Source of the DNA: Verrucomicrobiia bacterium
GTDB taxonomy: Bacteria; Verrucomicrobiota; Verrucomicrobiia; Palsa-1439
NCBI GenBank assembly: GCA_052146795.1
Contig: JBKQMH010000188.1
Coordinates: 2,996-66,995 of the forward strand
Reading direction: 5' to 3'
Length of the DNA: 64,000 bases
The position numbers and the translations under genes were made by a program. The notes under the pieces are model-generated. The model had not been told where the DNA came from. It did no database searches and worked only from the letters and a program-made list of their open reading frames with translations. Position 1 is the stretch's first letter; each line of letters opens with the position of its first letter. Below, piece by piece: positions 1,841 to 45,605 of this stretch.

Positions 1841-2883
1841 CGAAACTTCGGGTCGGCGTCATCGGTTTGGGCATCGGACGATCGCACATCCGCGGCTATC
1901 AGTCGCATCCGGGCGCCGAGGTCGTGGCCATCGCCGATCTCGATGAGACGCGTCTGAAAGTGTCGGGCGACGAGTTCAAGGTGCCCCACCGGTATCGCGA
2001 CGCGCAGGAGATGCTCACGAAGGAGAAGCTCGACGTCGTGAGCGTGTGCACGCCGAACAAGTTCCACAAGCCGCTCACACTGGCGGCCCTGAAGGCCGGT
2101 TGCCACGTGCTCTGCGAAAAACCGATGGCAATGAACACCGCGGAAGCGCGCGAAATGTTGGCGGCGGCGAAGAACGTCAAAAAACGGTTGATGATCAATT
2201 TCTCGTATCGCTTCCTCCTGCAATCGTGGGCGCTCAAGGCACAGATTGATGCGGGTGCGCTCGGGGAGATTTACTACGCGCGCACGATTTGGCTTCGCCG
2301 TCGCGGCCTACCGGGATTTGGCGGTTGGTTCGGACAGAAGGAACTCTCCGGCGGCGGGCCGATCATCGATCTTGGCGTGCATCGGCTCGACCTCGCGTTG
2401 TGGTTGATGGGCTACCCGAAACCGGTCTGGGTGCTGGCGAGCACCTACAACGCCATTGGGTCGCGCGTCGCGGAAGAAAAGGGCGCGAAATTCGATGTGG
2501 AAGACTTCGGGGTGGCGCTGATCAAATTCCAGAACGGCGCGACGCTGGAACTCGAGGCCTCGTGGACGTCGTACATCGCCGAGCAGGAATTGATGGAGAC
2601 GCGGTTGTTCGGCACGCTCGGCGGCGCCGTGCAACGCAACGTCGGCGAAGGCTACAAATTTGAATCGGAACTCTTCGTCGAGCGCAATGGCGTGCACTAT
2701 GATATGAAACTGCATCATCCGCCTGGGCCGGACGTGCCGAACCAGTACCAGCACTTCATCGACAGCATCATGCACGACAAACCGCATATCGCCACGGGCG
2801 AAGAGGGGCTGGTTGTAATGGAATTGCTCGACGCGATCTACGAAAGCGCGGCCACCGGCAAGCCGGTACAAATCAAAGAGTAG
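1837..2883 (+). CDS. Gfo/Idh/MocA family oxidoreductase
   Basis: GVIGLGIG Rossmann fold, [18 protein letters not shown]; GTG start overlaps the upstream stop (GTGA). Confidence 0.92.
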
Positions 2884-8993: not shown

Positions 8994-10645
8994 GCGCACA
9001 ACCTGCAAAGCGCGGCGGCCAACTCCCGTTGAGCATCGAATGGCTGATCCTGGCAGGGATTGTCGCGGTGGGTGCCTGGTTGCGGTTTCAGCACCCGGAA
9101 CTGCTTGAGTTCAAGAGTGACGAGGCGTTTGCGGCCAATCAGGCCTTGGAATTTGTCCGGGGCGGCAAATTACCGACCTCCGGCTTGATGTCGAGTGTGG
9201 GGGTATCGAATCCGCCACTGTTCGTATGGCTGTTGATCCCCATGTTTTTCCTGACCTCGAACATCGCCGTCGTCTGCGGCATGATTTCCGCGTTGGGACT
9301 GGCCGCGGTGGTCGCGACCTGGTGGATCGGGCGAAGGTACTACGGTTCTGTGAGCGGTCTGGTGGCGGCAGCGTTGTTCGCGTCGGGTCCGTGGGCGGTC
9401 GTGTATTCGCGGAAAATCTGGGCTCAGGACTTCGTACCGGTGCTTGCCACCGGGGCGATGTGGGCGGCGCACTCGCTGATTCTCGGCAAGAACCCGAAGG
9501 CGATTTTTTGGCTGCTGTGCCTGCCGCTGTGTGTGATCCAGATTCACTACAGCGGGTTTGCGCTGACGGCGAGCGCCATCGCCGTTGTCGTACTCCTTCG
9601 CCCAAGGATCAATTGGCGATTTGCGGTGGCCGGCGTCGCGCTGGCGGTTGTGTTGGCGATGCCCTACGTAATCGCGCAACAGAAGACCGGCTGGGCCGAG
9701 TGGAAGCGCATGTCCGAAGAAGGCAGCAGTCGCCACTGGGAGCAACTTCCGCGAGGGATGACGATCAATCCGCAAAGCGGGTATCCGTTTCCCCGTCGCC
9801 CGACCGAGGCGTGGCGTCACGCGCTGGCCATCATGAACAGCGGCGAAATCGAGGACATACTGGGCTTGAGCACGAGTGAGGCATTTGACCCAAATCGAAT
9901 CTGGTCCAGCAAAGGTTCGGGGCAGAACCGGTATTTCGATACCACGCTTACATTGGGAGACTGGCTGCCGGCGTTGCAACAACTGGCATTCTCCATTGCG
10001 CTGGTTTGGTTTGGCGTGAAGGCCTTGAAATCAGCGAAGACCTTGTTTCACCGCCAGGTGACAGCGGACGAGGAATCAAAGAAGGCGTGGATACTGGTCC
10101 TGTGGGTTGTGGTCCCACTCGCTGTATATCTTTTGGCCGGGCTCTGGACATATCTATCGTACTACGTCATTCTGTATCCCGTCTTTTTCGTGGCCCTTGG
10201 GGCGCTCGCTCAACGGGCTGTTCCGCCAAAGATTCTGGTTGCGGGAATCGCAGCCTTCATCGTCGGTAACATTGTGTCCATGCTCGATGTGAACCGGTAT
10301 TTGGTTCAGTACGGCGGGGCTCAAGGGACGTATGGATCGGGGCTCGGGTTCAAACAGGCGGCAGCGGAGTATGTCGCGGCGCGCGGAGACGCCCGGGAAT
10401 TTGTCAAGGAGAACCGATTGCTGCAAATGGACCGGTGGCAGCGCGTGGAACCAGCACAATTGGACCTGCCATTCCTTGCCACAATGCGCGGACAGGGGCA
10501 GGGGCAGGGGAACCAGTTGGCGACGAATTCGATCATGCTCGTGGTGGATGACAATCGGACCAGCTACGATGCCAGCCGGGTGAATTTTGGCGGGACGGGG
10601 ACGAACTTCGGCCCGGTGCGCGTTTACATTATCAACCGACAATGA
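8990..10645 (+). CDS. GT-C (ArnT/PMT-like) membrane glycosyltransferase
   Basis: DE motif after first TM (FKSDEA), NPPLFVWL, many TM helices; GTG overlaps upstream stop. Confidence 0.8.
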   Translation: MSAQPAKRGGQLPLSIEWLILAGIVAVGAWLRFQHPELLEFKSDEAFAANQALEFVRGGKLPTSGLMSSVGVSNPPLFVWLLIPMFFLTSNIAVVCGMISALGLAAVVATWWIGRRYYGSVSGLVAAALFASGPWAVVYSRKIWAQDFVPVLATGAMWAAHSLILGKNPKAIFWLLCLPLCVIQIHYSGFALTASAIAVVVLLRPRINWRFAVAGVALAVVLAMPYVIAQQKTGWAEWKRMSEEGSSRHWEQLPRGMTINPQSGYPFPRRPTEAWRHALAIMNSGEIEDILGLSTSEAFDPNRIWSSKGSGQNRYFDTTLTLGDWLPALQQLAFSIALVWFGVKALKSAKTLFHRQVTADEESKKAWILVLWVVVPLAVYLLAGLWTYLSYYVILYPVFFVALGALAQRAVPPKILVAGIAAFIVGNIVSMLDVNRYLVQYGGAQGTYGSGLGFKQAAAEYVAARGDAREFVKENRLLQMDRWQRVEPAQLDLPFLATMRGQGQGQGNQLATNSIMLVVDDNRTSYDASRVNFGGTGTNFGPVRVYIINRQ

Positions 10646-12294
10646 AATTGCCGTTCGAAACGAAGTGGGAACGTGTGTTTGCCATCGCATTAGTGGTGGC
10701 GTGGGCGGCGCTCTTCCTGCCGAACCTGCGCACGAACCCGAACTGGTACGGGGACGAAGGCGAGTGGATGGAGAAAAGTTGGACCTTCATTCATGGCACG
10801 CCGCGGGTCGGCCCAATCATCGACGACTTTGTCTTTCCGTATCCGTATCCACCGCTCTACATGGTGGTGACCGGCACGCTGCTGCGGGTATTTGGCAACG
10901 ATATTGTCGTGGCGCGTGCGTTGGGGGCGGTGACGGCGCTGGCGGCGGGGGCGATTCTGTTCTGGATCGGGACGCGTCTGCGCGACAAACGCTTTGGACT
11001 CCTTTGTGCCGCGGCGTTCCTGGCGTATTCCGAGACCAACGTCAATTTCCGTTGGGTGCGTTCTCATCCGATGGCCGGAACATTGGCGCTGGCATCGGTC
11101 GGATTCCTCATTCGCTACGTCCAGGAGAAGCGCCTCCGCGACGCCATGTGGGCGGGGCTGTTTTGTTCGTTGGCGACGGCCACGAATTATTTCACCTATC
11201 CGTTGATCGGTGCGGTTATCGTGACGGTGGCGGTGGTGAACGGGCGACAGTGGAAATCACCGCGCGTCTGGCGGGACGTCGCGGTGGCGGCAGCCGCAGC
11301 CGTCGCGTACGGCGGGTTGTTTCTGTTGTGGTACAGCGCGGCGCACGGTTGGGAGCAATTGATGACGCAGGTCGGGCGACTGACCAGTGTGGCCAGCAAC
11401 GAGGTTCGCCCGACGGTTGGCGGCGAGGTCGAACGGTTCATCGAGAACGTATGGACTCTTGGCTTCAAGACGCCGACGCAAGGCCCGCCGTTGCCGTGGT
11501 CGGGGCATGATTGGTGGCTCACGGTAGCGACCATCGGGTTTGTGTTCCTGCCGACTCGGGATTGGCGGTTGCGATTGTGGATGCCAGTGTGGTTGCTGGT
11601 GTTGATGTATGGCGTGTTCCAGAAGCTGAACAATGTGCCGCTGTTTTTCTACCCCGCGACGATCTTTCTTCCGCTGATGGCCGTCGGCTTTGCCGGCGTG
11701 CTCGTGTGGGCTGGTGAACTGACCAAACGACTGGCGGTCAAATCCGGTGGAGAGGCAGCGGCGACCATTGCGGTGGTTGTCCTGGCGGGGTTTGCCTGGG
11801 TGTCGGCGACGGGGGCGTGGGGGCATTTCCACACCCGAATCGACATGTGGACGCAGCAATCTGTACCGGACGCCGAAGCGGCGATGGCCTTCGTCAACGC
11901 GCACACGACGAAGGACGACTTTGTGATTGTGCCGAAGCAGATTTATTGGCTGGCGCATTGCGACCGGCGCAGCATGCTGACATTCTGTGCCCGATATGAG
12001 GGGGTGGACAACGATATGCCGGTGCCAGCCCACATTCCCCGCGAGTTGTTTTGGTTCGACTGCCGCCTGGAGCAGGCGAAGTATCTGGTGATGGAATATG
12101 GGGTGGAGCAGCAAATGTTTCCGGACGGACGGGAAGCACGGTTGCCAATTGGCATTGATGCAGTGTATACGTTGGCCCTACGTGGTGTGCGGGAGATTGT
12201 CCAACGCACCCAGGACGAGAAGTGGCCCGTCGTATTTCATCAGGGCGTGTACCTGGTCTTGGCGAACCCGCGGTTGGTGAAGGAGACGCAATAG
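10642..12294 (+). CDS. GT-C (ArnT/PMT-like) membrane glycosyltransferase
   Basis: WYGDEG, YPPLY, multiple TM helices, soluble C-terminal domain. Confidence 0.8.
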   Translation: MKLPFETKWERVFAIALVVAWAALFLPNLRTNPNWYGDEGEWMEKSWTFIHGTPRVGPIIDDFVFPYPYPPLYMVVTGTLLRVFGNDIVVARALGAVTALAAGAILFWIGTRLRDKRFGLLCAAAFLAYSETNVNFRWVRSHPMAGTLALASVGFLIRYVQEKRLRDAMWAGLFCSLATATNYFTYPLIGAVIVTVAVVNGRQWKSPRVWRDVAVAAAAAVAYGGLFLLWYSAAHGWEQLMTQVGRLTSVASNEVRPTVGGEVERFIENVWTLGFKTPTQGPPLPWSGHDWWLTVATIGFVFLPTRDWRLRLWMPVWLLVLMYGVFQKLNNVPLFFYPATIFLPLMAVGFAGVLVWAGELTKRLAVKSGGEAAATIAVVVLAGFAWVSATGAWGHFHTRIDMWTQQSVPDAEAAMAFVNAHTTKDDFVIVPKQIYWLAHCDRRSMLTFCARYEGVDNDMPVPAHIPRELFWFDCRLEQAKYLVMEYGVEQQMFPDGREARLPIGIDAVYTLALRGVREIVQRTQDEKWPVVFHQGVYLVLANPRLVKETQ

Positions 12295-17894: not shown

Positions 17895-18626
17895 ATGAAC
17901 ACACAGACTCCTACACTGACGCCACAAGAAGCCGCCATCAGGCGCGGACGCTTCCTTGAGTATCTTAGCGTAGCCTGGATGGTAGTCGAGGCCGCGGTCG
18001 GCATTGCTTCGGGTATTCTCGCAGGCAGCATCGCGCTAGTCGGCTTCGGCGCTGATTCGGTTATCGAGGTTTTTTCTAGTGCTGTGCTCCTTTGGCGGTT
18101 GCGCGAAGGCTCGATGGGACAGGAGCGCGAGCATACAGCCCTCAAGCTCGTCGGCGTCAGCTTTTTCGCATTGGCGGCTTATGTCACGTTCGGCGCGATT
18201 CGCGACTTGGCTCTGCGTCACCACCCGGAAGTCAGCTATATCGGCATCACGCTTGCGGTCGTCGCTCTCGTGGCGATGCCCTTGCTGGCACGAGCCAAGC
18301 GCCGCGTGGCCGCGAGCTTGCAGAGTCGCGCAATGCACGCGGACTCACGTCAGTCTGATTTCTGTGCTTATCTATCCGGTATTCTTCTCGGTGGACTTAT
18401 CCTTAACGCCTTCTTTCGCTGGTGGTGGGCCGACCCCGCGGCAGCACTCGTCATGGTGGTACTCATGCTCCGAGAGGGTGTTCAGGCATTTCGCGGAGAG
18501 ACCTGTTGCAATTCAACGCATGCGCCTAACCATACGATGCCGCTAACCGACTCCGCGCCTCACGCCGACTGCTGCAAACCCGCAGACCCACCGGCAGCCG
18601 ACGCGCCGCGCTCCGCCGGTGGCTGA
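17895..18626 (+). CDS. Cation diffusion facilitator-like (TMEM163-like) transporter, cassette-borne; C-terminus reads through attC
   Basis: GSIALVGFGADSVIEV, AMHADSRQS, WWADP; bounded by GTTAGGCGCA (17867) and TGCGCCTAAC (18521). Confidence 0.85.
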   Translation: MNTQTPTLTPQEAAIRRGRFLEYLSVAWMVVEAAVGIASGILAGSIALVGFGADSVIEVFSSAVLLWRLREGSMGQEREHTALKLVGVSFFALAAYVTFGAIRDLALRHHPEVSYIGITLAVVALVAMPLLARAKRRVAASLQSRAMHADSRQSDFCAYLSGILLGGLILNAFFRWWWADPAAALVMVVLMLREGVQAFRGETCCNSTHAPNHTMPLTDSAPHADCCKPADPPAADAPRSAGG

Positions 18627-34909: not shown

Positions 34910-35449
34910 ATGACGGAATGGGACATCCAATCTCGCGGGGACGCGTGCACCGCCTGTCAACGGCCGTTCGCGGACAAGGAGGCGTACCACACGCTGTTGA
35001 GCATGGACGCGGCCGGCTACGCGCGGCGTGATTTGTGCGCCACGTGCTTTGCGGGCGCGGGGCGGGACGGCGTCATTTCGTACTGGCAGGGAGAATACAA
35101 GGTGCCGCCGCCACCTCCGCCCGAAGCAATTCAGAAGGAGACGGCGGAAACCCTGTTGAGGAAACTGGTCGAGTCCACCGATCCATCCCACGCGTCGGCC
35201 CGGTATATCCTGGCGGTGATGCTGGAGCGAAAGCGGATTTTGAAACACCGCGACACGATGCATGAAGACAGCGGCGTGGAGGTGCTCGTGTACGAGCACG
35301 CGCGCACGGGCGAATCGTTCACCATTCCCGATCCGAAACTGCGGTTGGATCAGCTCGCTCAGGTGCAGGAAGAAGTGTCCGCGTTGCTCCATCCGTCCGC
35401 CGAAAGCGCAAAGGCTGAGCCCGTCAACGGGCCTGACCCGCAACCTTGA
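34910..35449 (+). CDS. Conserved hypothetical protein with two CxxC pairs
   Basis: CTAC...RRDLCATC; YILAVMLERKRILK; TATAAT at 34881. Confidence 0.75.
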   Translation: MTEWDIQSRGDACTACQRPFADKEAYHTLLSMDAAGYARRDLCATCFAGAGRDGVISYWQGEYKVPPPPPPEAIQKETAETLLRKLVESTDPSHASARYILAVMLERKRILKHRDTMHEDSGVEVLVYEHARTGESFTIPDPKLRLDQLAQVQEEVSALLHPSAESAKAEPVNGPDPQP

Positions 35450-35474
35450 CACTCTTTCGCGTGTACGATAGACA
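35446..35474 (+). promoter_or_regulatory. Probable native tRNA-Phe promoter, now upstream of the tRNA 5' fragment
   Basis: TTGACA-17-TAGACA ending about 30 bp before the tRNA fragment. Confidence 0.55.
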
Positions 35475-35502
35475 TAAAGGCCGCTTCGGCCAGAAAAATT
35501 CC

Positions 35503-35544
35503 GGTGGCTAGGTAGCTCAGTTGGTAGAGCACTGCACTGAAAAT
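35503..35544 (+). repeat. Left att junction: 42 bp direct repeat = 5' half of tRNA-Phe
   Basis: GGTGGCTAGGTAGCTCAGTTGGTAGAGCACTGCACTGAAAAT is identical to 43858-43899; the tRNA sequence stops just after the anticodon loop. Confidence 0.95.
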
Positions 35545-35662
35545 TCAACCAAGCCCATTGCCTTGGAAGCCTGAAAAACAGGGTAATGCGCGGCAGGTGA
35601 GCGAATTCCGCTCAGAGTCGAGTTGACTGGTTTCGACTGCCCCCGACCGCTTCCAACTGCCG

Positions 35663-35685
35663 AGTTACTGCAAAAGTTACGACAG
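35663..35685 (+). repeat. Integrase arm-type site candidate (left)
   Basis: AGTTACTGCAAAAGTTACGACAG is 22/23 identical to 43784-43806. Confidence 0.8.
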
Positions 35686-36153
35686 CACTTCGGCATGTTT
35701 CGAGGGGGTAGAGGGGGAGCAGTTTTCGGCCCCCAAGCGTTGCAGCACCCACGCCCTTCCGTGCTTATAAAAAAAAAACAAAAAGGGCAGGTCGATTTTT
35801 ATCAAACATTACAAATGGGCCGACTGCCCGCTACACTAGCGGCAGGGAGTCCGACCACCATTTCCGCCCCGTTTGAGGGCGTATCAGCCCGTTTGGCGCG
35901 GAGTGTGGGCGACTTCTTGCAAAAGGCTTGTTGCAGGGAAATAGCAAGCCGTATCCCACTACTGGCCAACAGCTGGCAAAATGGGCCGCAGAATTTTAGC
36001 AAGACGTAAGTTGTTGGTGTCCAATCTCCCAAAAACCTGCTTGGGGTGGATAAGTCGTTGTGGTGTTCGGGCAGGTCAGTGGTGGGACAGTCTCGCCGAA
36101 AGGCAACCCCATTGCCGCATAAGCGCACAGTTTGGGTGCTGGATGCAGGAGAG

Positions 36154-36621
36154 TCACTTACGCCACACCGCGACAAGTCCCGTTAGCGCGCCTAATATTC
36201 CAATGATCAGAGTTAACCACGCTATTAAAGCCTCCCTCTGTTCTTTTCTCTCGGCGCGTATTAGTGCCTTTATCTTGGAATGGCCTTCGGGTTTAAGAAG
36301 CCACCTCCCCGAATCCGTCCGTCTCCAATTGGCGTCCTCGTCCTCACCAGCAGGAATCTCAGGAATTGGTAGGTGTAGCCGCTGCGCTTTATCCCGCCGC
36401 CATGTCGTTTCAAGCCACTCAAGCTCCTCCTCAATCGGCCCAGATTCATGTTCCATCTCCTCATAAACCTGTTGAAGTGGGTAGGGCTTCATTGTCGTTC
36501 GTGCAGCCGCGATTTTTTCTCTATAGAACTGGTTTATGTAATCTCGTTGGAGTCTAAGACGCCACTTGCGAGGGCACAGTGTCATCACGAAAGCCCGCAG
36601 TTTTCGCGTCGTAACTGTCAC
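36154..36621 (-). CDS. Hypothetical protein with C-terminal TM helix (element cargo)
   Basis: Open frame abutting the upstream stop; C-terminal IAWLTLIIGILGALTGLVAVW. Confidence 0.6.
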   Translation of the reverse strand: MTVTTRKLRAFVMTLCPRKWRLRLQRDYINQFYREKIAAARTTMKPYPLQQVYEEMEHESGPIEEELEWLETTWRRDKAQRLHLPIPEIPAGEDEDANWRRTDSGRWLLKPEGHSKIKALIRAERKEQREALIAWLTLIIGILGALTGLVAVWRK

Positions 36622-37257
36622 TTAGTAACCTGCGCCCCCCGCTGGTGGTCTCAGGGAGAGTTGATCTGTCTGCATCTTGACCTCTAGGTATGCGAGTTCA
36701 TCCGACTTGGCAGGTGACAACACAACCTCGACTGTGTTCCAAGTGGCGGGTTTGAGTTCATCCGTAAAGTTCACCTGTTTGTAGTGCAGCGAGTTCTGCC
36801 AAGCAACGTTCTCCTTAGCTGCATAACTTGCTTCAGGTGGCTTAGCGCGTGCCCATTTCAAGTCCAGCTTGCACCCGTGGTAGGTTGCCGATGATGGATT
36901 TCCGATACTAAGCCGCACCCTGAATCCGTCTAGGTACGGTAGCGCTTCTACAACGGAAATGAAAAAGCTACCAGTATCCGAGTCGATCCGCTGGAAGGCT
37001 TTATCAGTTGTATCAAGGAATACCGTCCTGTGGAGGTCGCCTTCCAAGAAGCCGACACGTGTATTAAGAAAGTCAAGCAACTTCATTGCGATGTCAACTC
37101 GCGCCTTCACGTTATCGACATGGACTTGGTTGCTCAGCGCGGCGACTTGATTACTCAGGGCAGCAATTTGGTTGTCCTGCCGTCGCCCCTTTTCGTCTGA
37201 GCATCCGCAGACCGCGACAGCCCCGAAAACCAAACAGAGAAGTGTCAGCCGTTTCAT
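36622..37257 (-). CDS. DUF3251 (YajI-like) lipoprotein (element cargo)
   Basis: Lipobox VCGC, coiled coil, PYLDGFRVRLSIGNP, LSPAKSDELAYLEV. Confidence 0.7.
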   Translation of the reverse strand: MKRLTLLCLVFGAVAVCGCSDEKGRRQDNQIAALSNQVAALSNQVHVDNVKARVDIAMKLLDFLNTRVGFLEGDLHRTVFLDTTDKAFQRIDSDTGSFFISVVEALPYLDGFRVRLSIGNPSSATYHGCKLDLKWARAKPPEASYAAKENVAWQNSLHYKQVNFTDELKPATWNTVEVVLSPAKSDELAYLEVKMQTDQLSLRPPAGGAGY

Positions 37258-37312
37258 TTTAACTTTCCTCAGAACCCCGATTTGGAAGTTTTCTTCGCGA
37301 CAGGAACATCCT

Positions 37313-37717
37313 CTAACCTGCGCTCTCCCTTGGCGGAAAGAGCCGCCCGTTAAGCATAGAGCTTGCGAACTGGTTGAGGAACTGAACACCAACGAGGGCG
37401 GGGAGAATAGCGAGTGTGAACATCCACAGCCCGCCGTTGTCTGCGAGCCAATTCACGGACTGGCACATAAGCCAATAGCCAACTGGCTTGCAGAGGTGAC
37501 GAATGGCGCGAGGTGAATATCGGAACCAGACCAGAAAGACAATATAGAGCAAGTACAACCCTGACAGCAGACAAAGGGTCACGAACCATTCCCAATGCGT
37601 TCCCTCTCGGAACATCTCCCATACCGAATAACCTGCCCCGCAGAGCAGTACGACCCCAAGCAAACCGTACAAGATGGCGATTACTCTTATCACGTTTCTG
37701 CCGACGGTGCGTTTCAT
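37313..37717 (-). CDS. Small multi-pass membrane protein (element cargo)
   Basis: 3-4 hydrophobic segments; start uncertain (37717 or 37738). Confidence 0.55.
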   Translation of the reverse strand: MKRTVGRNVIRVIAILYGLLGVVLLCGAGYSVWEMFREGTHWEWFVTLCLLSGLYLLYIVFLVWFRYSPRAIRHLCKPVGYWLMCQSVNWLADNGGLWMFTLAILPALVGVQFLNQFASSMLNGRLFPPRESAG

Positions 37718-37759
37718 TTGCCTTTCCGTGTGTTGCATCGCAACGACGCTCGGCCACAG

Positions 37760-38062
37760 TCATTGTCGCGGAGTATCGCGTTCATGTTCTTCTGCTTCGA
37801 CACGCCTTCTTTGCCAGGTGGCAACAAGGGGTACACTTAGAAAAAGCAGGATTAGCCAAACCCAATTCGGCCATTCCTTGAATGGCGGGGTCTTTGTGAG
37901 AAAGCTGGAGCTGAGCACTAGCCCGAAATAATACACCCACGATCTACGGGGTTTTGTCATCTTCGCGCCACGCTGATCTTCGCGCTGCGCTGCCGCGCCA
38001 CGTTGATACGCTGCGGCAATGGCCTTCCACCGTCTACGGGCCTTTTTTTCAGGGGTTGTCAT
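37760..38062 (-). CDS. Hypothetical small membrane protein (element cargo)
   Basis: Two hydrophobic segments; weak support. Confidence 0.4.
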   Translation of the reverse strand: MTTPEKKARRRWKAIAAAYQRGAAAQREDQRGAKMTKPRRSWVYYFGLVLSSSFLTKTPPFKEWPNWVWLILLFLSVPLVATWQRRRVEAEEHERDTPRQ

Positions 38063-38104
38063 GCTGAATCTTCTTTACCAACCTTTCGCTAGCGGGAATC
38101 GTTT

Positions 38105-38986
38105 TCATTGCAGATGCAGGACGACCTCGCTTCCGTTGAAGTTCAATCTCACCGCGTCACGCTCAATGGAAGTAATTCGTGCGCCCTCGATGGCGTCACC
38201 CGCCCGAAGGCTCATGCCATTTATCATCGCTTCGCTGCCGTCACGGGCGTATATGATTCCTTGTAGAACAAACTGCGGGTATTCAGTGGGAGGGCGGGTT
38301 GTTTGCGCCTGCTTCGCTTGGCTTGCTTCGGCTATAGTGGCCGCCGTCGGCGTCTGACGGCTGGTCTGATACGGCAACGCACTGGGTGTGTAATTCAAGT
38401 CGCTATAGGTCGTTTGTCCCGCCACGTCACTGTCAGGGTGTTCGTCGTCGTCGCGCTGCTCATCAGTTGGTGTTACTGCAAACGGCCTTTGGTTGGGCGT
38501 CCCATCATTACCACGATAGTCAGAGGAATTCCAAGTGGGAGTCATGCTGAAACTCGTGCCGAATCTTGTGCGTCCAGCAGAGTACGTCAGATTGTTGAAT
38601 ACCGTGTTGCCAATTCTCTGACTCGTGCCATAACCGAACCCGCCGCGAGAGTCTGAGAAGTTGTGAAAAGTTGTGTTGCCGATTTGACCACTTGTGCCGA
38701 ACAAGTCATTACCAGAGTTATCTGAGAAATTGTGAAAGGCAGTGTTGCCGATCTGTTGGCTGGTGCCAAAGGTGTAATTGCCAGAGCTATCGGAGAGGTT
38801 GTGGAAGGTTGTGCCGCCGATCTGTTGACTGGAACCAAAGTGGTAATTCCCATCGGAGTCGGTAAAGTTATAGAAGGTCGTGTTGCCTATCTCTTGAGAG
38901 GTTCCTGACAAAAACGCGTCTTGTGCCAGAATAGATCGGTGCGTCGTCGCGATCAAAAGGAGGGCTGCAAGGAACGGGAGTCTCAT
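38105..38986 (-). CDS. Secreted protein with five 23-aa repeats and a C-terminal GspB/MshK-like domain
   Basis: Signal peptide; G(T/S)SQxIGNTTFHNFSDSxGNxxF x5; LQGIIY...AMING..LRAGDAIEGARITSIERDAV. Confidence 0.75.
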   Translation of the reverse strand: MRLPFLAALLLIATTHRSILAQDAFLSGTSQEIGNTTFYNFTDSDGNYHFGSSQQIGGTTFHNLSDSSGNYTFGTSQQIGNTAFHNFSDNSGNDLFGTSGQIGNTTFHNFSDSRGGFGYGTSQRIGNTVFNNLTYSAGRTRFGTSFSMTPTWNSSDYRGNDGTPNQRPFAVTPTDEQRDDDEHPDSDVAGQTTYSDLNYTPSALPYQTSRQTPTAATIAEASQAKQAQTTRPPTEYPQFVLQGIIYARDGSEAMINGMSLRAGDAIEGARITSIERDAVRLNFNGSEVVLHLQ

Positions 38987-39214
38987 TGAATATGTCCTTA
39001 TCCTGCTTGGTGAGCAGTAGTTGTGCCAGTAACGATAACCGTCTGGGTGTACCCGCGCCAACCGCGTGTGCGGCAGGAGCGCACCCGTAGCTGATTCTGG
39101 GGCATTGCCACGGCCCGCAACGCGGCGGTAGAATTCACAGCAAACCACGCGAACTTGCGTCGGGGGGTGTCGGCTGACTACGCCCCGCCCCGCCCCGCAA
39201 CGGAGTCGGACGTT

Positions 39215-40258
39215 GTGAACGAAGACAAAGAATCGCGGTTTCACGAATTGGCGACATTTCTCCATGTTGCCAAGCGCGGGACTCTGCCAGAGGAATCGGA
39301 GCGGGCACGTGCGAATCTGCGGGCGTTTGTCGAAGCCAATCCCGAATATCGGGACAAGGCGAAGCAGGTAGAGGCACTGCCCGCTGACGCCGACTTAGAC
39401 GCGATTGATCGGGTGATGGGTTACAAGCCGCTGCTCTTGTCGGTTGAGGATGTCGAAGCGTTTGCTGACAGGTTGGAGAAAAACCGCGAGACGTTTCGGC
39501 TCGTGCAACCGAAAGGCAAGCGAGGCAGCAACGCGAGGATCGTGAAGCGACTGCGGAGCAACATCTCTTTCCGCGACAAGTACCGCAAAGACTTTCTCGC
39601 CAAGTGGGAGCAGGCGATGCCGAAGAACCCCGAAACTCGAAAAAAATACTTTGCGGAATTGTTGAAGCGAGAGGGCATCACCGAACAACAGGCGCGGACG
39701 CAATCGGGTTTGCGGCATGATGCCTATAAGCACCTACATGCCTTGGATACCTACGACACACTGCTGATCGGCTTGGCTGAGAAGTACAATGTGAACCTGT
39801 GCGACTTGGAAGCCGCGCTAATCAGTCCTCGCGGTCTGAAGGAAGCGCAAGAGAAGCTGGCGCAGGACTCGCCACAGGAGGCCGAAATGCGCGGCAAGGT
39901 GAGGCGACTGAATCTGCGGCGTGGAGCGAGCTTGCCGACGCCGGACGAAATGCGGCGCGTGAAGGCGATGCAGAAAATCAGGCATGTGCCGTCACGCAAG
40001 GTCAAGCGGGTCGAAGCCAAGGCTGTCGGTATCGAGTTGGGAGAGCACGAGCATACGCACCAGCCCTACGCAACGAAAATGATGCTGAAGCTGAAACAGA
40101 TTTTGGGAAGATCACGGCTTCCGAAGCGTCTCCATAACCACACGATCTCCAATGTCCTAAGTCAGTTCTGGCGGGCCTATTCACCTGACGGCATTAGCTT
40201 CAGCTTAACTGCCGACATCGTGCGCTTCCACCTACGCAAGGCGAAGATTCACCGTTAG
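39215..40258 (+). CDS. Hypothetical basic helical protein of the element
   Basis: Long ORF, GGAG before GTG 39215; no recognised family. Confidence 0.7.
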   Translation: MNEDKESRFHELATFLHVAKRGTLPEESERARANLRAFVEANPEYRDKAKQVEALPADADLDAIDRVMGYKPLLLSVEDVEAFADRLEKNRETFRLVQPKGKRGSNARIVKRLRSNISFRDKYRKDFLAKWEQAMPKNPETRKKYFAELLKREGITEQQARTQSGLRHDAYKHLHALDTYDTLLIGLAEKYNVNLCDLEAALISPRGLKEAQEKLAQDSPQEAEMRGKVRRLNLRRGASLPTPDEMRRVKAMQKIRHVPSRKVKRVEAKAVGIELGEHEHTHQPYATKMMLKLKQILGRSRLPKRLHNHTISNVLSQFWRAYSPDGISFSLTADIVRFHLRKAKIHR

Positions 40259-40363
40259 AAAGCGGCTTTCCTTAGCAATCCCCGAAGTCCATTTGGGCAC
40301 GGATGCGCCCTTTACTATCCTGTCTTAAATTACAGTACATATGATTGTATCCATAAACAGTCA

Positions 40364-40400
40364 GAAGGCCGTGAGTTTGACAGGAGACGGTCTTTTTTTC
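40364..40400 (+). terminator. Possible intrinsic terminator
   Basis: AGGCCGT...ACGGTCT stem followed by a T-run. Confidence 0.35.
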
Positions 40401-40426
40401 TTGTCCAGAACCCAAGGAGTCCAGTT

Positions 40427-40636
40427 ATGACCTCAGACACAAACCCCGAATACTTCACGCCACAGGATGCCGCCTCTTTTTGCGGTTGCTCCACGGCAAC
40501 AGTGAAGCGAATCGCCGACGAGCTTCGACTGCCAGTCATCCGCACAGTCGGAGGCGTGAGGCTATTCAGCCGCGAGCAAGTCGAGCGCATCAAAGCAGAG
40601 CGAGAACGGCGGGCAGCGGAGGCGCTCAGACGATGA
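40427..40636 (+). CDS. MerR/excisionase-like HTH protein
   Basis: FTPQDAASFCGCSTATVKR...RTVGGVRLFSREQV; AAGGAG RBS. Confidence 0.85.
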   Translation: MTSDTNPEYFTPQDAASFCGCSTATVKRIADELRLPVIRTVGGVRLFSREQVERIKAERERRAAEALRR

Positions 40637-42021
40637 ATACACCACCTGTGAGCGCCCTTGCCAACTCCGCATTCGCGACAGAAGGTAACAATAAGCCCGT
40701 CGAAACCCTAGAGACTCCACCTGCTTCTTGCCTTTCTCCCAAGCCCGACACGGGTTCTGCGGTTGGGTTTGCGGAGCGGTCGCCAGCCGTGGACGTGTTG
40801 ACCGAGCCGACCAAGACCGTGAGCTACGGCTTGCCCAAGCGATTCTGTGACGACCTAGGCGGTTGGATTGGCGACTATTTCGCCTTGTTTGAGCCGCGCA
40901 CTGAGCCGAGCTATGCCTTCCACTTGGCGGGGGCGCTGGCGTGCATGGACACGATTTTAGGGCGGGACGTTTACTGGCCCTACGGGAACACAACGACGTA
41001 TCCGCAGAACTACTATCTGCTTGCGGGTCGTGTTGCGGCGGCGCGTAAGTCCACGGCATTGAGTTGCGCGGCGCGGGTGATCCAGTGTCTTGAAACGGAA
41101 GCCACACCTTATCGCATGGCCGAAGGCTTTTCGTTTGAGGCGCTGCCCGATGAGTTTCAAGAGTGGCCGTTGCGGTTGCTACTGTTGGACGAGTTTTCAA
41201 GCCTACTAGTGTTGGCTGCGAAAGAATACGGAAGCGGAATCTCGCAAGCCCTCAATTCCATGTGGCAAGGCGCGGACAGAATCAAGTTGCGTTTTCGTGG
41301 ACGCAACGGCGGCAAGGCCGTGACGATAGACAAGCCCACGCTGACGATACTAGGGGCAACGACTTTGGAGTTGCTGCAAGGGAATCTGCGGACGGGCGAT
41401 TATGGGGGCTTCACGTCGCGGATTCTACCCTTCTACGCGGAAGGCGATTCAAAGGACTTACCCGAACCGCTGCCGATTGAGCAACCCGAAGTCGCGGCAC
41501 TGGCCGACAGCCTGCGGAAGCTGGCCGAAGGCGCTAAGGGAGCGGCTCACTGGACGCCCGAAGCGTTGGTGTTGTGGGACAAATGGTATCGGCAGCAAAA
41601 ACGCGAAGCGGCGGCTAACGGCTGCGGCTTTGCATCACGCAAGCCCGACCATGTGCGAAAGATTGCGTTGAAGCTGCAAGTCTCACGCAACGGCACTGCA
41701 AACGTGAGCGAGTGGGCGCTGGCCCATGCAATCGAGATTGCCGACTGCGCGGAAAAATCTTGGCGCAAGGTGTTCGGCGGTGGCCCGCTGACGAGTGGGT
41801 TCATCGCGTCGAAGGCGATGGAGCTTTTGGCCTACATTCAAACCCATGCCTGTCTAGAGGGAGTTCCATACTGGCGGGCGAGCCGCGAGTTGAAGATGGA
41901 CAAGAACACCTTTGACAAGGCGCTGCAAACTCTGCGGGTGTGGGAGCAAATTCACGTTGCCGAGCACGGCACCAGTGGACGGCCCGCAACGCTTTTGTGG
42001 CCCAAGAAGGGGGCGCAATGA
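40633..42021 (+). CDS. DUF3987/YfjI-like P-loop protein (replication/helicase-associated)
   Basis: LAGRVAAARKST (Walker A-like), LLLDEFS (Walker B), PTLTILGATT, GGFTSR; C-terminal wHTH-like region. Confidence 0.75.
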   Translation: MNTPPVSALANSAFATEGNNKPVETLETPPASCLSPKPDTGSAVGFAERSPAVDVLTEPTKTVSYGLPKRFCDDLGGWIGDYFALFEPRTEPSYAFHLAGALACMDTILGRDVYWPYGNTTTYPQNYYLLAGRVAAARKSTALSCAARVIQCLETEATPYRMAEGFSFEALPDEFQEWPLRLLLLDEFSSLLVLAAKEYGSGISQALNSMWQGADRIKLRFRGRNGGKAVTIDKPTLTILGATTLELLQGNLRTGDYGGFTSRILPFYAEGDSKDLPEPLPIEQPEVAALADSLRKLAEGAKGAAHWTPEALVLWDKWYRQQKREAAANGCGFASRKPDHVRKIALKLQVSRNGTANVSEWALAHAIEIADCAEKSWRKVFGGGPLTSGFIASKAMELLAYIQTHACLEGVPYWRASRELKMDKNTFDKALQTLRVWEQIHVAEHGTSGRPATLLWPKKGAQ

Positions 42022-42109
42022 CCGCAACCCGCCGAGGCAAAAAGCAAGAAGCCCCTGAAATCCCGAAGAAATCCACACCCTTCTTGCCTTTTGCTTCTCG
42101 CACACGAGC

Positions 42110-42433
42110 ATGATCGCCCCGATTGCCACAGCGACCGTACCGCGCTCCCCGCGTGGCGGGCAATCCCTCTCCACAGCCACGGAAACACGTCCGTTGCCCC
42201 TTGGTGTGCGTTATCTGACCGTGAAGGGCGCGGCGGAGTATCTGGGCATGACTGAGGGGGCGGTGTATGCGGCAGTGGCACGGCGACAGATTCCGTTTCG
42301 ACGGCAGGGGCGCAAGTTGGTGTTTGACGCGGTGGAACTGGATGCCTATATGCACGGGCTAGAAGGCGTGGACGTTGCGGAAGCCGTTGCGCGGCGATTG
42401 CATAACGGCACGGTGAACACTCTGGCGAATTGA
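42110..42433 (+). CDS. Excisionase-family HTH (HTH_17)
   Basis: YLTVKGAAEYLGMTEGAVYAAVARRQIPFRRQGRKLVFD..ELDAYM. Confidence 0.85.
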   Translation: MIAPIATATVPRSPRGGQSLSTATETRPLPLGVRYLTVKGAAEYLGMTEGAVYAAVARRQIPFRRQGRKLVFDAVELDAYMHGLEGVDVAEAVARRLHNGTVNTLAN

Positions 42434-42437
42434 GGGC

Positions 42438-42465
42438 TTGACTTGAATAGTATCTGTGATACCAT
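42438..42465 (+). promoter_or_regulatory. Promoter with overlapping palindromic operator ahead of xre-int
   Basis: TTGACT-16-TACCAT; GTATC-TGT-GATAC inverted repeat at 42450-42462; GTG start 7 nt downstream (leaderless). Confidence 0.65.
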
Positions 42466-42472
42466 ATGGCTT

Positions 42473-42748
42473 GTGAAGGTTTGGACACCGAACAAGATTC
42501 GCCAGCTTCGGGCAGCAGCGGGTCTGAATCAGGCGCAGTTGGCCGAGTGGTTGGGAGTTGACCAGAAGCATGTCAGCCATCTGGAAACAGGCTTTCGGCC
42601 CGCTGGCCCGCAAACGGTGCGGTTGCTGACGATGTTGGAGAAGATGCACAAGGGCGAGCTAAAAGCCGTCCAGTCTCAGGGGAGAAAGGGCAGACATGAA
42701 CGAAGCTCAAGACGTAGCAGCGCAAGCACCAAAGCAGGAAAAGCGTAG
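42473..42748 (+). CDS. XRE-family HTH transcriptional regulator
   Basis: IRQLRAAAGLNQAQLAEWLGVDQKHVSHLETG. Confidence 0.85.
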   Translation: MKVWTPNKIRQLRAAAGLNQAQLAEWLGVDQKHVSHLETGFRPAGPQTVRLLTMLEKMHKGELKAVQSQGRKGRHERSSRRSSASTKAGKA

Positions 42749-43853
42749 GCCGCGAGGCTCACACCATATCTATCCGCGTGGCAAGAGTTGGTATTATCAA
42801 TTTACGGTCAAAGGCAAACGGTACCAAGGTGCGATTGGCGAGGTGAGCAAAGCCGTAGCGCGTGAGGTTGCCGAAAAGAAGCGCGTTGAGGCATTGGAAG
42901 GCAAGCTTGTCGAGCGACCGCTGAAAGCCCCGTTATTCGGGCATTACGACGCGGAGAAGGGGCAATTCACCAATGCTGTCGGTGAGTACCACAAATACTA
43001 TCGGGAGAATCACAAGGCGCGGTCAGCGGAGCGTATGACGTATGCGCTGCAAGCGTTGTGCGACGTGTTCGGCTCAAAGCGTCTGGATGAGATCAGTCCC
43101 TTTGGCGTCGAGCAGTACAAGGCACAGCGCAAGGCGGCAGGTTATGCGGACGCCACGACTAACCGCGAATTGGCGTGCCTGAAGAATCTTTTCAACATGG
43201 CAATCAAATGGGGTTGGACGGTGGACAATCCAGTGCGACAGGTGCGATTTTACCGCGAGAACAATGCTCGGTTGCGGTGGTTGACATTGGAGGAAGAAAC
43301 CGAGTTGCTAAAGCATTGTGACCAGCGGTTGAAAACCTTGGTGTTGGCGGCGGTGGACACTGGCTTTCGGGCGGGTGAGCTTCGGTCGTTGCGCTGGCAG
43401 GCCGTGGACTTCGCACGCGGCACGGTGTCCGTAGCCAGTTACTACACCAAGAACGGCGACCCGCGATGCAATCCGATGACCAAGCGGCTAGAGCAGGCAT
43501 TGCGAGAGTACAAGAGCGCGGCAGGGGACAGGGCGGACGGGCTGGTGTTCGGGCCGCAGCAGTGGCGCAAGGCGTTTGAGAGCGCGAAAAAACTTGCGGG
43601 ATTAGGCAAGGACGTTGTATTTCATTCCCTGCGGCACACGTATATTAGCCGTCTGGTGATGGCGGGAGTGGACATTCGCACCGTGCAAGAGTTGGCAGGA
43701 CACAGGACGATCACAATGACGATGCGTTACGCGCACCTTGGGCCGGAGCAAAAGAAGCGGGCGGTGGCCAGATTGGACGCCGAAGTTACTGCAAATGTTA
43801 CGACAGTGGACTTTGGCGCTGTACGGGTGGCCGCTGTAAGTCCCTCACTTTGA
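42696..43853 (+). CDS. int: Tyrosine recombinase/phage integrase
   Basis: N-terminal arm-binding beta domain; catalytic R (TGFRAGEL), K (TKNG), HSLR, LAGH, Y (MRYAH). Confidence 0.96.
   Translation: MNEAQDVAAQAPKQEKRRPRGSHHIYPRGKSWYYQFTVKGKRYQGAIGEVSKAVAREVAEKKRVEALEGKLVERPLKAPLFGHYDAEKGQFTNAVGEYHKYYRENHKARSAERMTYALQALCDVFGSKRLDEISPFGVEQYKAQRKAAGYADATTNRELACLKNLFNMAIKWGWTVDNPVRQVRFYRENNARLRWLTLEEETELLKHCDQRLKTLVLAAVDTGFRAGELRSLRWQAVDFARGTVSVASYYTKNGDPRCNPMTKRLEQALREYKSAAGDRADGLVFGPQQWRKAFESAKKLAGLGKDVVFHSLRHTYISRLVMAGVDIRTVQELAGHRTITMTMRYAHLGPEQKKRAVARLDAEVTANVTTVDFGAVRVAAVSPSL
43784..43806 (+). repeat. Integrase arm-type site candidate (right, inside the int 3' end)
   Basis: AGTTACTGCAAATGTTACGACAG. 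Confidence 0.8.
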
Positions 43854-43860
43854 ACATGGT

Positions 43861-43936
43861 GGCTAGGTAGCTCAGTTGGTAGAGCACTGCACTGAAAATG
43901 CAGGTGTCGTCAGTTCGATTCTGACCCTAGCCACCA
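43861..43936 (+). tRNA. tRNA-Phe(GAA)
   Basis: GGCTAGG/CCTAGCC acceptor stem, CTGCA-CTGAAAA-TGCAG anticodon arm, GTTCGATTC T-loop, encoded CCA. Confidence 0.97.
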
Positions 43937-43979
43937 GATTTACCTCACCGGGCTGGCGCGACGGAGGAGGCAACGGGAT

Positions 43980-45605
43980 TTGTTGAGCTACTTTAATTTC
44001 CTCGCGGGAATTGCGTTGATGCTATTCGGCATCCGCAGTTTGCGCAAGGGCACGGATCGGGTGTTTGGCGCCCGGTTTCGCAAGCTCGTCCAAACATCCA
44101 CCCGGGGAAGTGTTCGCGCGATGTTGGCCGGCTTTCTCATTTCCATCCTGGCCCCGAGCAGCACCGCCATGGCGTTGCTGTCGGTCGACGCGGTCAACGG
44201 CGGCTACGCGACCTTGCGGCAGATTCTGGCATTGATGCTGGGCGCGAACGTGGGGTTTACGGTCACGGTGCAGCTTCTGGCGTTCAAGTTCTACCTCTAC
44301 AACGCCATTTTTATCGCCATCGGGGTTCCGCTCTACCTGTTCAGCAAACGGCAGAATGTTCTGGGGGCGGGGCAGGCGATCTTCGGGATTGGGTTCCTGT
44401 TGTTGGCGATTCAGGTGCTGTCCATGGCGGTGGCTCCGATCAAGAATAGCGCGGACGTGCTCGAATTGATCCGGGTTCTGGAAAACCATCCGGTCTGGCT
44501 GGTGTTGCTGGGAATCCTTCTGCAGGTGGCCACGCAAAGTTCCACCACGACCATCGGCATTGGAATCGCGCTGTGCTCGCAACAGGTGATTCATCTCGGA
44601 GCCGCGTTGGCGATCGTCATTGGGGCCAACATTGGCATTGGCGTCACCTCTCTTCTCGCGGGACTTGCCCAGGGCGATACGCGGCGCATGGCGGTGGGGA
44701 TTCTGTTCGTGAAGTTGGTGGGCACGGCGGTGGTCGCGCCTTGGCTGCCGGAAGTCATTCGATGGCTGGAGCCGCTCAGTTTTGCCGGGGAGACACACGA
44801 CACGCAATTGATCGCCAATTTCCACACCGCGTTTAACATCGGTCTTGCGCTGGTATTCCTGCCGCTCGTCCCCCTGCTATCGAGTGTCTTGGAGAGGATG
44901 ATCCCGGCGGGACCCTCCACCGAGGACAAAGCCGGGGCCCGTTATCTCGACCTGACGGCACTGGAAAGCCCGCCGCTCGCATTGGGGCAGGCAACGCGGG
45001 AAATCCTGCACATGGCGGACATCGTGCGGGAAATGTTGCGGAGCGTCTATCGCTGTTTTCAGGGGGGAAGTGAGGCGCTGTGCGAGCAGGTCCGGAAAGA
45101 GGATGACAAGGTCGACTCGCTTAACAACGAGATCAAAGCCTACGTCACGCGGATTTCCGAGCAGGCCCTGAACACCGAGGATTCGCGCCGTGAAATCGCG
45201 TTGCTCACGTTTGCGACCGAGTTGGAAACCATCGGCGATATCATCGACGAGTACCTGGTGGAATTGGCCGAAAAGAAGATTACGTTGCACGTCGGTTTCT
45301 CGAAGGAAGGGTGGGGGGAACTGGATGGCTACTTCCAGAAGGTGCTGGGGAACTTCGAGATTGCCGTCTCGGCGTTTGCGAGTCAGGACAAGAACCTCGC
45401 GGAGCAGTTGCTTCGGCACAAGCAACACATCAACGAACTTGAGCGCGATCTGCGCAACCGCCATTTCCACCGTTTGCGGGAGGGCCTCCAGGAGTCATTT
45501 GAGACGAGCGCGATCCATCTGGATGTGTTGACCAATCTGAAGGCGATTAATTCCCATCTCACCGCCGTGGCCTACCCGATTTTGGAGAATGGGCGGGCGA
45601 CCTGA
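43980..45605 (+). CDS. Na/Pi cotransporter family protein with PhoU domains
   Basis: SSTA, LGANVG, QSST, IGANIG, NFHTAFN; C-terminal PhoU-like helices; ETSAIHLD. Confidence 0.92.
   Translation: MLSYFNFLAGIALMLFGIRSLRKGTDRVFGARFRKLVQTSTRGSVRAMLAGFLISILAPSSTAMALLSVDAVNGGYATLRQILALMLGANVGFTVTVQLLAFKFYLYNAIFIAIGVPLYLFSKRQNVLGAGQAIFGIGFLLLAIQVLSMAVAPIKNSADVLELIRVLENHPVWLVLLGILLQVATQSSTTTIGIGIALCSQQVIHLGAALAIVIGANIGIGVTSLLAGLAQGDTRRMAVGILFVKLVGTAVVAPWLPEVIRWLEPLSFAGETHDTQLIANFHTAFNIGLALVFLPLVPLLSSVLERMIPAGPSTEDKAGARYLDLTALESPPLALGQATREILHMADIVREMLRSVYRCFQGGSEALCEQVRKEDDKVDSLNNEIKAYVTRISEQALNTEDSRREIALLTFATELETIGDIIDEYLVELAEKKITLHVGFSKEGWGELDGYFQKVLGNFEIAVSAFASQDKNLAEQLLRHKQHINELERDLRNRHFHRLREGLQESFETSAIHLDVLTNLKAINSHLTAVAYPILENGRAT

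Follow-up and report, generated by a model that had tools for sequence, protein, structure and literature searches.

By textbook reasoning, integrating elements use the 3' part of their target transfer RNA (tRNA) gene so that the host promoter keeps working. The portion of PMC8371274 that was available states that bacterial recombinant tRNA genes keep their original promoter with very few exceptions; it presents the pTN3-like integrases as unique among archaea in using the tRNA gene's 5' half, the tRNA being expressed from the integrase promoter, and, citing Williams (2002), it describes a similar situation as seldom met in bacteria. The Islander method, in the excerpted text of PMC4383910, accepts islands with a 5' fragment upstream. 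Here we describe an element with an xre-type repressor gene (xre) and a tyrosine integrase gene (int) that is inserted in the tRNA-Phe gene of a Verrucomicrobiia bacterium and replaces the 5' half of that gene. It lies on contig JBKQMH010000188.1 of assembly GCA_052146795.1, of which positions 2,996 to 66,995 (64,000 nucleotides, nt; forward strand) were analysed as a whole; this stretch is called the window and all coordinates refer to it. The arrangement has rarely been described, and the element exemplifies it clearly and with good replication.

In the overall best explanation, to which we give a probability of about 0.6, the rebuilt tRNA forms the final cistron of an operon that starts at the xre promoter (P_xre). 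The recombination site of the element (attP) holds the tRNA 5' half directly after the int stop codon, and recombination at or next to the anticodon loop rebuilds the gene from the element 5' half and the host 3' half, leaving the host 5' half stranded behind the native promoter, 8.4 kb upstream; other genomes, compared below, show these structural steps. Transcription would run from P_xre (42438–42465), probably autoregulated by Xre, through xre and int into the tRNA, and ribonuclease P (RNase P) would release the tRNA by cutting 7 nt past the int stop.

Layout of the insertion

The junctions and the genes next to them are as follows.

35446 to 35474, plus strand: native tRNA-Phe promoter (TTGACA 35446–35451, 17 nt spacer, TAGACA 35469–35474)
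35503 to 35544, plus strand: attL identity block, the displaced host 5' half (tRNA positions 1–39 at 35506–35544, plus 3 nt upstream)
42438 to 42465, plus strand: P_xre, TTGACT-16-TACCAT, its −10 preceded by TG and a palindrome (GTATC-TGT-GATAC) spanning spacer and −10
42473 to 42748, plus strand: xre-type helix-turn-helix (HTH) repressor gene (PF13560/PF01381; mechanical open reading frame, ORF, from 42443)
42696 to 43853, plus strand: tyrosine integrase gene int, 385 amino acids (aa; PF00589, E 1.4e-31)
43858 to 43899, plus strand: attR identity block, the element-borne 5' half
43861 to 43936, plus strand: intact hybrid tRNA-Phe(GAA), element 5' half and host 3' half (ARAGORN, Rfam)

The intact tRNA was called by ARAGORN and matches the Rfam tRNA model with 74.5 bits; on the displaced fragment the same model gives a weak match (35506–35556, 27.4 bits), below the gathering threshold. 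The direct repeat comprises 45 nt with one mismatch (35503–35547 and 43858–43902), of which 42 nt are exact (the two identity blocks); this exact part occurs twice in the window against 0 expected from 100 shuffles and spans tRNA positions −3 to +39. The block of identity thus reaches 3 nt before the tRNA 5' end, i.e. it extends toward the 5' and not the 3' end of the gene. Fragment and target gene have the same orientation, and the element measures 8,355 bp from repeat start to repeat start. The anticodon-stem arms, CTGCA and TGCAG, are readable in the sequence and flank one end of the identity block. The integrase is a whole frame of 385 aa, unsplit by integration, which stops with TGA at 43851–43853, leaving a gap of 7 nt to the tRNA. 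The native promoter now faces the displaced 5' fragment only, and the intact gene begins in element DNA. These results bear out what a reading of the DNA letters alone (the sequence-only reading) had claimed for the locus, namely a 42 bp repeat running through the anticodon loop, a truncated tRNA copy behind a native-looking promoter (the same promoter is present in congeners), a complete tRNA-Phe gene 7 nt after the integrase stop and a TTGACT-16-TACCAT site at 42438, which was recovered by a promoter scan.

Empty sites and sister elements

For comparison, 40 relatives were searched with the left flank, the tRNA-Phe locus was taken from 15 congeners and two genomes of other genera, and the junctions were aligned (G000 denotes the genome of the window and other G numbers the comparison genomes; L numbers are individual loci and C numbers contigs). 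In nine of the 15 congeners (G003, G007, G009, G008, G015, G001, G011, G013 and G017) the native promoter stands directly on an intact tRNA-Phe gene, so that the site is uninterrupted on its 5' side, and five of these nine (G003, G007, G009, G008 and G015) also continue into the Na/Pi-cotransporter gene that lies downstream in the window, giving empty sites with both flanks. Rebuilt tRNA and empty-site tRNA agree at 76 of 76 nt. Four congeners (G014, G010, G006 and G005) contain related elements whose two junctions match those of the window: behind the native promoter come a tRNA 5' half and foreign DNA, and 7.6–9.8 kb further on int and an intact tRNA. The integrases of these four are 87–91% identical to that of the window; the elements share just a module of an HTH_17 gene, xre and int and about 140 nt of the left end, and their cargo differs. 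The same two junctions were also found in a sixth genome, from another genus.

Comparison with other genomes has shown an insertion in which the element supplies the tRNA 5' half, and its structure is certain for practical purposes. The 5'-replacement orientation put forward by the sequence-only reading is thereby backed by both empty sites and sister elements.

The 3' side of the gene varies as well. In three congeners (loci L022 of G001, L027 of G013 and L017 of G012) a common, different sequence directly 3' of tRNA-Phe replaces the leader of the Na/Pi-cotransporter gene. It probably marks a classical 3'-side island, in which case elements of both orientations would use tRNA-Phe within the genus. 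About 29.5 kb separate the tRNA of G012 from the conserved upstream gene, and the DNA before this tRNA differs from that of the other congeners and includes a good promoter-like site, TTGTCA-17-TATCCT (p=0.003); no int was found at the tRNA-Phe locus of G012 in a search with the window int as query.

Orientation across the integrase family

Close relatives were collected from 401 genomes of the class by an int match of E≤1e-60, which gave 12 loci in ten genomes. At ten of these loci an intact tRNA gene in the orientation of int begins a few nt behind it (Phe at six, Leu-TAG at two and Met at two), and a repeat of the tRNA 5' half lies 5.6–13.7 kb upstream. The repeats end between +35 and +40 (at +39 in G000, +35 in G066, +40 in the Leu elements and +39 in the Met elements). 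Identity blocks that end in this range in ten of ten elements and in three tRNA species fit a crossover in the anticodon loop, which had been suspected from the sequence and is now well supported by these alignments. Whether integrases of this clade consistently give 5' fragments, a question raised by the earlier reading, can be answered in the affirmative for ten of the 12 close loci, namely all ten complete elements.

The two remaining close loci are one in G093, with a truncated int and no tRNA in its 3.6 kb locus, and one on another contig of G000 (C2), with the 5' half only of tRNA-Leu(TAA). This contig of 12,909 bp carries a second element of the family, with tRNA 5' halves at 1727 and 11419 and int at about 10275–11399. 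Its HTH_17, xre and int genes are 89%, 87% and 71% identical to those of the window, int has one internal stop codon, and the module lies between the two tRNA-Leu(TAA) 5' halves. The copy after int lacks a tRNA 3' half; an intact tRNA-Leu(TAA) is present on contig C30 (13751–13837, minus strand), behind an AT-rich stretch with TATAAT. The C2 locus looks like a tandem array broken by assembly or like an attP-like form. At the two Leu(TAG) elements (L125 of G022, 18324–18586; L126 of G014 contig C13, reversed, 10265–10488) a tRNA-Gly(GCC) gene lies about 65–100 nt after tRNA-Leu, so that by 5' replacement int comes to stand in front of a cluster of two tRNAs.

A distant set was built from int relatives of 29–47% identity from many phyla; of 579 loci 80 were kept, and tRNAs were called with ARAGORN. 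At 30 of the 80 a co-oriented tRNA lies right after int, at 25 the tRNA is convergent (the classical 3' type), and 25 show neither arrangement (22 without a tRNA in the locus, some with less than 150 nt of room, and three with the tRNA upstream). For 28 of the 30 co-oriented loci, the stop of the long int frame falls in a range from 47 nt ahead of the tRNA to 23 nt within it. Where a small co-oriented ORF lies directly upstream of int, it is an HTH_17 gene in 17 of 22 distant 5'-type loci and 11 of 22 3'-type loci. A tree was calculated from 62 integrases, leaving out L041, which has no long frame, and the frameshifted int of G005 and G066. On this tree the window int falls in a supported clade of 11 rows, all of the 5' type. 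The orientation label changes 11 times, at least six of these changes being forced by well-supported branches, and shuffled labels gave a mean of 19.8 changes, with none of 500 shuffles as low, a figure that shows clustering only, as relatives are not independent. The anticodon stem-loop is a dyad near mid-gene, so that an attP core about 45 nt past the int stop could fit either half of a tRNA gene; this would account for the family's repeated switching between 5' and 3' replacement. The earlier statement that 5' replacement is uncommon agrees with the parts of the literature that were available; it does not hold for this integrase family, given the proportions in the close and distant sets.

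Transcription of the rebuilt tRNA gene

A consensus scan for sigma-70-type promoters covered 35300–44100 and found four promoter-like sites, against 4.1 expected from shuffles. The only plus-strand site upstream of int is P_xre; the scan found no plus-strand promoter between 42465 and the tRNA, and a terminator scan found no plus-strand terminator-like site in 42100–43936. Sites were also scored with a position weight matrix (PWM) for sigma-70-type promoters with unsourced base frequencies, and p values were taken from shuffles. For the native tRNA-Phe promoter of the window the score is 8.0, where shuffles average 2.0 (p=0.013); across the genus native promoters reach 8.0, and in the two other genera 14.2 (p 0.000–0.03). 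For the last 110 nt before the rebuilt tRNA of G000, the best score is 1.6 against a shuffle mean of 3.6 (p=0.79), and in eight of nine other elements of the clade this segment is likewise no better than shuffles. The exception is the Leu element of G014 (G014b), with TCGACA-17-TAAGGT (score 8.1, p=0.04).

The hexamers and the palindrome of P_xre are kept in nine of ten aligned elements and in G005, i.e. in ten of 11, with only G038 deviating. The consensus is TTGAC(A/T/G), 16 nt and a TG-extended TAATAT, TACCAT, TATACT or TAACAT (the spacer of G005 is 17–18 nt), and the palindrome across the −10 is of the ATTATC-N3-GATAAT type. This conservation persists although Xre falls to 48–57% identity, and the palindrome is a candidate Xre operator. 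The start of xre is likely to be GTG 42473, 7 nt past the −10, which would make the transcript nearly leaderless. The promoter with a palindromic operator that had been picked out at 42438 is thus real-looking, and no sigma-70-like site lies nearer to the tRNA. Since P_xre is conserved and no sigma-70-like promoter was found closer, co-transcription of xre, int and tRNA from P_xre is the best model of how the gene would be expressed, and we hold it to be more likely than not.

The downstream neighbour may be affected too. In the stretch 43937–45605, no terminator-like site was found between tRNA-Phe and the Na/Pi-cotransporter/PhoU gene, which starts 43 nt later. The cotransporter gene may natively share the tRNA transcript, in which case the insertion would have cost it its promoter as well.

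Decay of int and its remnants

In some relatives int has decayed. G005 has frameshifts in both xre and int but has kept the promoter and the DNA from there to the tRNA at full length, and in G066 a frameshifted, full-length int still abuts tRNA-Phe. In G002 and at the G005 left copy, the space between a divergent gene and the tRNA has shrunk to about 360 nt that contain no more than traces of int, in the following regions.

L025 (G002), 2780 to 3139: int-trace region
L016 (G005, reversed), about 3070 to 3426: int-trace region

The trace consists of 40 nt of 85–90% identity (blastn, E 1e-5 to 1e-11) and is absent in six native upstream controls. A second kind of int was considered for the upstream DNA of G002; tblastn gave no significant match and blastn just the 40 nt trace, and the region was assigned to a decayed remnant. 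The best promoter-like site of the remnant is TCGACT-17-CAGAAT (p=0.07). By an alignment made by eye, its −10 falls on a non-promoter stretch of intact int and may have arisen after decay. G038 has an int remnant beside its displaced fragment. Judged from these traces, G002 and G005 contain an older element that is nearly erased, and whose 5' half and upstream DNA are now the resident form of the gene. Because int remnants are present in G002, the G005 left copy and G038, replacement has occurred serially and dependence on the int operon can be escaped. The sequence-only reading had expected the xre-int-att end to be protected from decay if the tRNA gene is single-copy. The full-length frameshifted int DNA of G005 and G066 agrees with this; G002 and the G005 left copy, which lost nearly all of int while the tRNA survives, do not.

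Alternative explanations

Several observations weigh against transcription from P_xre. Promoter prediction is weak evidence; the matrix frequencies are unsourced and only sigma-70-type sites are covered. A search of sequencing runs found the region in four soil metagenomes (DNA) and 5% of its words in one metatranscriptome; the short contigs of the latter, with 3–10 differences, derive from relatives, and contigs can reveal neither transcript starts nor read-through. For a tRNA needed in abundance, a promoter under autorepression may seem ill suited. In G002 and the G005 left copy, expression of the tRNA has to do without P_xre. The window tRNA is preceded, at 18 nt, by a weak TTGGCG-18-TAAGTC whose position is conserved and which has the G014b site as its counterpart. 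Finally, promoter-like sites with p<0.05 in the last 100 nt before the tRNA were found in six of 30 distant 5'-type loci and in none of 25 3'-type loci (Mann–Whitney p=0.005). Given this enrichment, some members of the family probably carry a dedicated tRNA promoter in the 3' end of int.

In the main alternative, the rebuilt tRNA would have its own promoter in the C-terminal coding end of int, either TTGGCG-18-TAAGTC or a non-consensus site, and its supply would be independent of xre and int. Several Phe and Leu elements keep the words TTGGC(G/A) and TAAGT in corresponding places despite variation of the spacer and of the encoded tail, the G014b site is better than shuffles, sites are enriched in the distant 5'-type loci over the 3'-type controls, and G002 and the G005 left copy express their only or displaced tRNA-Phe context from the int remnant of about 360 nt. 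Against this stand the best site of G000, which scores under the shuffle mean, the Met elements, in which the two words are just 5 nt apart and can form no −35/−10 pair, and the −10 of the remnant, which aligns with non-promoter sequence in G000 and suggests an origin after decay. TTGGCR and GTAAGT were rejected as a general −35/−10 pair on the 5 nt spacing in the Met elements and left as a weak candidate for Phe and Leu. We regard a dedicated promoter in the window element as possible but doubtful, and the P_xre operon as the preferred source of the tRNA.

A less favoured alternative accepts the insertion and makes it harmless, the supply of tRNA-Phe coming from another gene that is unassembled or on another element. 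ARAGORN finds one tRNA-Phe among 44 tRNAs in the assembly, which has 215 contigs and is 93.75% complete. A query with the whole tRNA found one full copy (92–100% identical), always at this locus, in 17 of the 18 genomes of the genus; the 18th, 59% complete, has no tRNA-Phe match. G000 itself shows one full copy and the fragment, and a second copy was not found in this draft. The element-bearing G005 and G006, in turn, each hold a second tRNA-Phe(GAA) elsewhere, 80–82% identical (ARAGORN), so that, within the genus, two of five genomes with an element have such a gene and the 12 other genomes with a match all lack it, among them assemblies of about ten and about 20 contigs (G009 and G017). The second genes are at L129 (G005:C1:180400-181000) and L130 (G006:C45:2700-3200, on a contig of 4.2 kb) and could be backup copies, phage or element tRNAs, or the product of misbinned contigs. 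A further point in favour of a hidden gene, and against dependence on the element, is that the assembly lacks several expected tRNAs, e.g. Tyr and Ile. Single-copy status, on which the earlier argument for dependence had turned, is supported within the limits of a draft genome, and we consider a second source of tRNA-Phe in G000 improbable.

An assembly or binning artefact, with the element not in tRNA-Phe at all, is very unlikely and can be set aside: the metagenome-assembled genome is in 215 contigs and short-read contigs do break at the 42 bp repeat, but the same junctions recur in four other assemblies of the genus and in the sixth genome, and contigs from three soil-metagenome runs bridge host flank into fragment and int into tRNA at equal depth over element and flanks, so that the misassembly named earlier as a possible refutation is not borne out. 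These runs may include the source sample and are then not independent support. No contig of the three DNA runs joins 35544 to 43900 or 43899 to 35545; as contigs drop rare forms, this is no sign of immobility.

One further tRNA call was made in G000. On contig C141 (7305–7383) ARAGORN reports a 'tRNA-Stop' with anticodon TTA, which would read UAA and may be a false call or a suppressor-like tRNA.

Other features of the element

The remaining features of the element are listed below.

35545 to 35687, plus strand: conserved left end, P' arm of the inferred attP (six left ends aligned)
35663 to 35685, plus strand: candidate arm-type integrase site, P' copy, a 23-mer with two GTTAC words (six of six Phe elements)
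36154 to 39265, minus strand: cargo ORFs without assigned function (155, 256, 141, 100 and 386 aa)
39155 to 40258, plus strand: 367-aa ORF without family match
40480 to 42021, plus strand: DUF3987/primase-like replication protein (PF13148, E 9.6e-13; phrog_14296 'DNA primase', E 9.3e-24)
42110 to 42433, plus strand: HTH_17 protein, candidate excisionase or directionality factor (PF12728, E 5.3e-10; PHROG excisionase and recombination directionality factor families, about 2e-4)
43784 to 43806, plus strand: candidate arm-type integrase site, P copy, in the C-terminal coding region of int (kept in Phe- and Leu-targeting elements)

The 23-mer occurs twice in the window against 0 expected by chance. 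Its P copy sits 55–77 nt before the tRNA, and the other copy closes the conserved left arm exactly: conservation between sister left ends stops at 35687, and the sequences are unrelated past the 23-mer. Circularization would place the two copies on either side of the core, at about −77 and +180 nt relative to the first tRNA position. Comparable tandem words are present 60–100 nt before the tRNA in distant 5'-type loci. The 23-mers are read as putative arm-type integrase sites.

The catalytic residues R225, K252, H310-x-x-R313, H336 and Y345 of the integrase are invariant among 28 aligned homologues. The best-matching solved structures are generic integrases or Xer proteins, and among phage records the best integrase match is 31% identical, so that the search of these records gave no named close relative. 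The names given to homologous proteins, together with the labels of the sequencing runs, indicate a soil Verrucomicrobiota as host. DUF3987/primase-like homologues are present in the G022, G038 and G014b elements. The minus-strand cargo ORFs are not common to the sister elements, and their GC content of 52–53% is below the 59% of the genome. Of nine cargo-region ORFs that were scanned in Pfam, PHROGs and NCBIfam alike, seven remained without an assigned function. The C-terminus of the 386-aa ORF is weakly similar to type II secretion system (T2SS) protein B (E 2e-6, just under the Pfam cut-off); within the same ORF, three 69 nt tandem repeats (38652–38858, 65–75% identical) encode 23-residue repeats.

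Consequences

This clade as a whole opposes the textbook use of the 3' part, at ten of 12 close loci and in three tRNA species. If the tRNA rides on the integrase transcript, a mobile element's regulation would govern the only tRNA-Phe found in the assembly and possibly the Na/Pi-cotransporter gene too, and remnants of elements would become permanent upstream regions of tRNA genes, as the int traces in G002 and G005 suggest. That host translation would thereby be coupled to transcription of the integrase is an attractive consequence and is offered as a hypothesis. The orientation is relevant to island-finding software and to integrases used in genome engineering, since a 5'-type attP must carry its own expression signals.

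A broader proposition is that a widespread integrase lineage habitually makes a host tRNA gene the last cistron of an autoregulated xre/xis-int operon, with the two consequences that this would have for the host and for int. Taken whole, we think it unlikely to hold. If it were true, silencing or deletion of the recombination module would cost the host its tRNA, an addiction-like anchoring. RNase P would cut after the int stop only in the integrated state, as attP holds half a tRNA, and integration would change the 3' end and stability of the int mRNA, much as in lambda sib retroregulation but by way of a tRNA.

Comparison with known systems

Retroregulation of lambda int by sib depends on a difference in the RNA downstream of int between the integrated and the excised state. 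The likeness to the present element is a possible functional analogy, in which a complete tRNA, and with it an RNase P substrate, would lie downstream of int when the element is integrated.

The dusA-specific integrases, as far as the consulted part of PMC4482086 describes them, likewise replace the 5' end of their target and must bring expression signals; their target is protein-coding and not a tRNA gene. The Klebsiella pneumoniae islands with clade I.d integrases lie upstream of the arg2 tRNA gene and so on its 5' side; 'in contrast to all other GIs' (genomic islands) is the wording in the portion of 10.1101/2020.11.02.365908 that was available. They differ from the window element in their D-loop sublocation and in the phylum of the host, and the likeness drawn here is one of insertion side.

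With the classical anticodon-loop tRNA integrases (the sublocation classes of Williams, 2002, as represented in parts of citing papers) the window element shares a tyrosine recombinase, an identity block bounded by the anticodon loop with its stem dyad, exact regeneration of the gene, an int beside attP and candidate arm-type sites on both sides of the core. Unlike in those systems, the block of the window element runs to the 5' end of the tRNA and the host promoter is lost.

Full-text literature searching did not bring up any bacterial clade described as replacing the 5' halves of tRNAs systematically, and the supplementary tables of Islander/TIGER could hold such counts. What was not found in print in these searches is the regularity of the 5' orientation in this lineage and in the wider family.

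Among the closest layouts is that of the pTN3/TKV4-type elements of Thermococcales, in which, from the sections consulted, the 5' half of a tRNA gene serves as attB and the integrase gene directly precedes the rebuilt tRNA. The two differ in domain, host and accessory genes (xre and HTH_17 in the window element), and they are likened here by layout. The pTN3-type integrases are of the SSV-type 'suicidal' kind, with attP inside int, which is split on integration, whereas the window int is whole and has attP after its stop codon. Because int is unsplit by integration, the window element is not of the pTN3 type; the kind of arrangement is known, and the element represents a new bacterial lineage of that kind.

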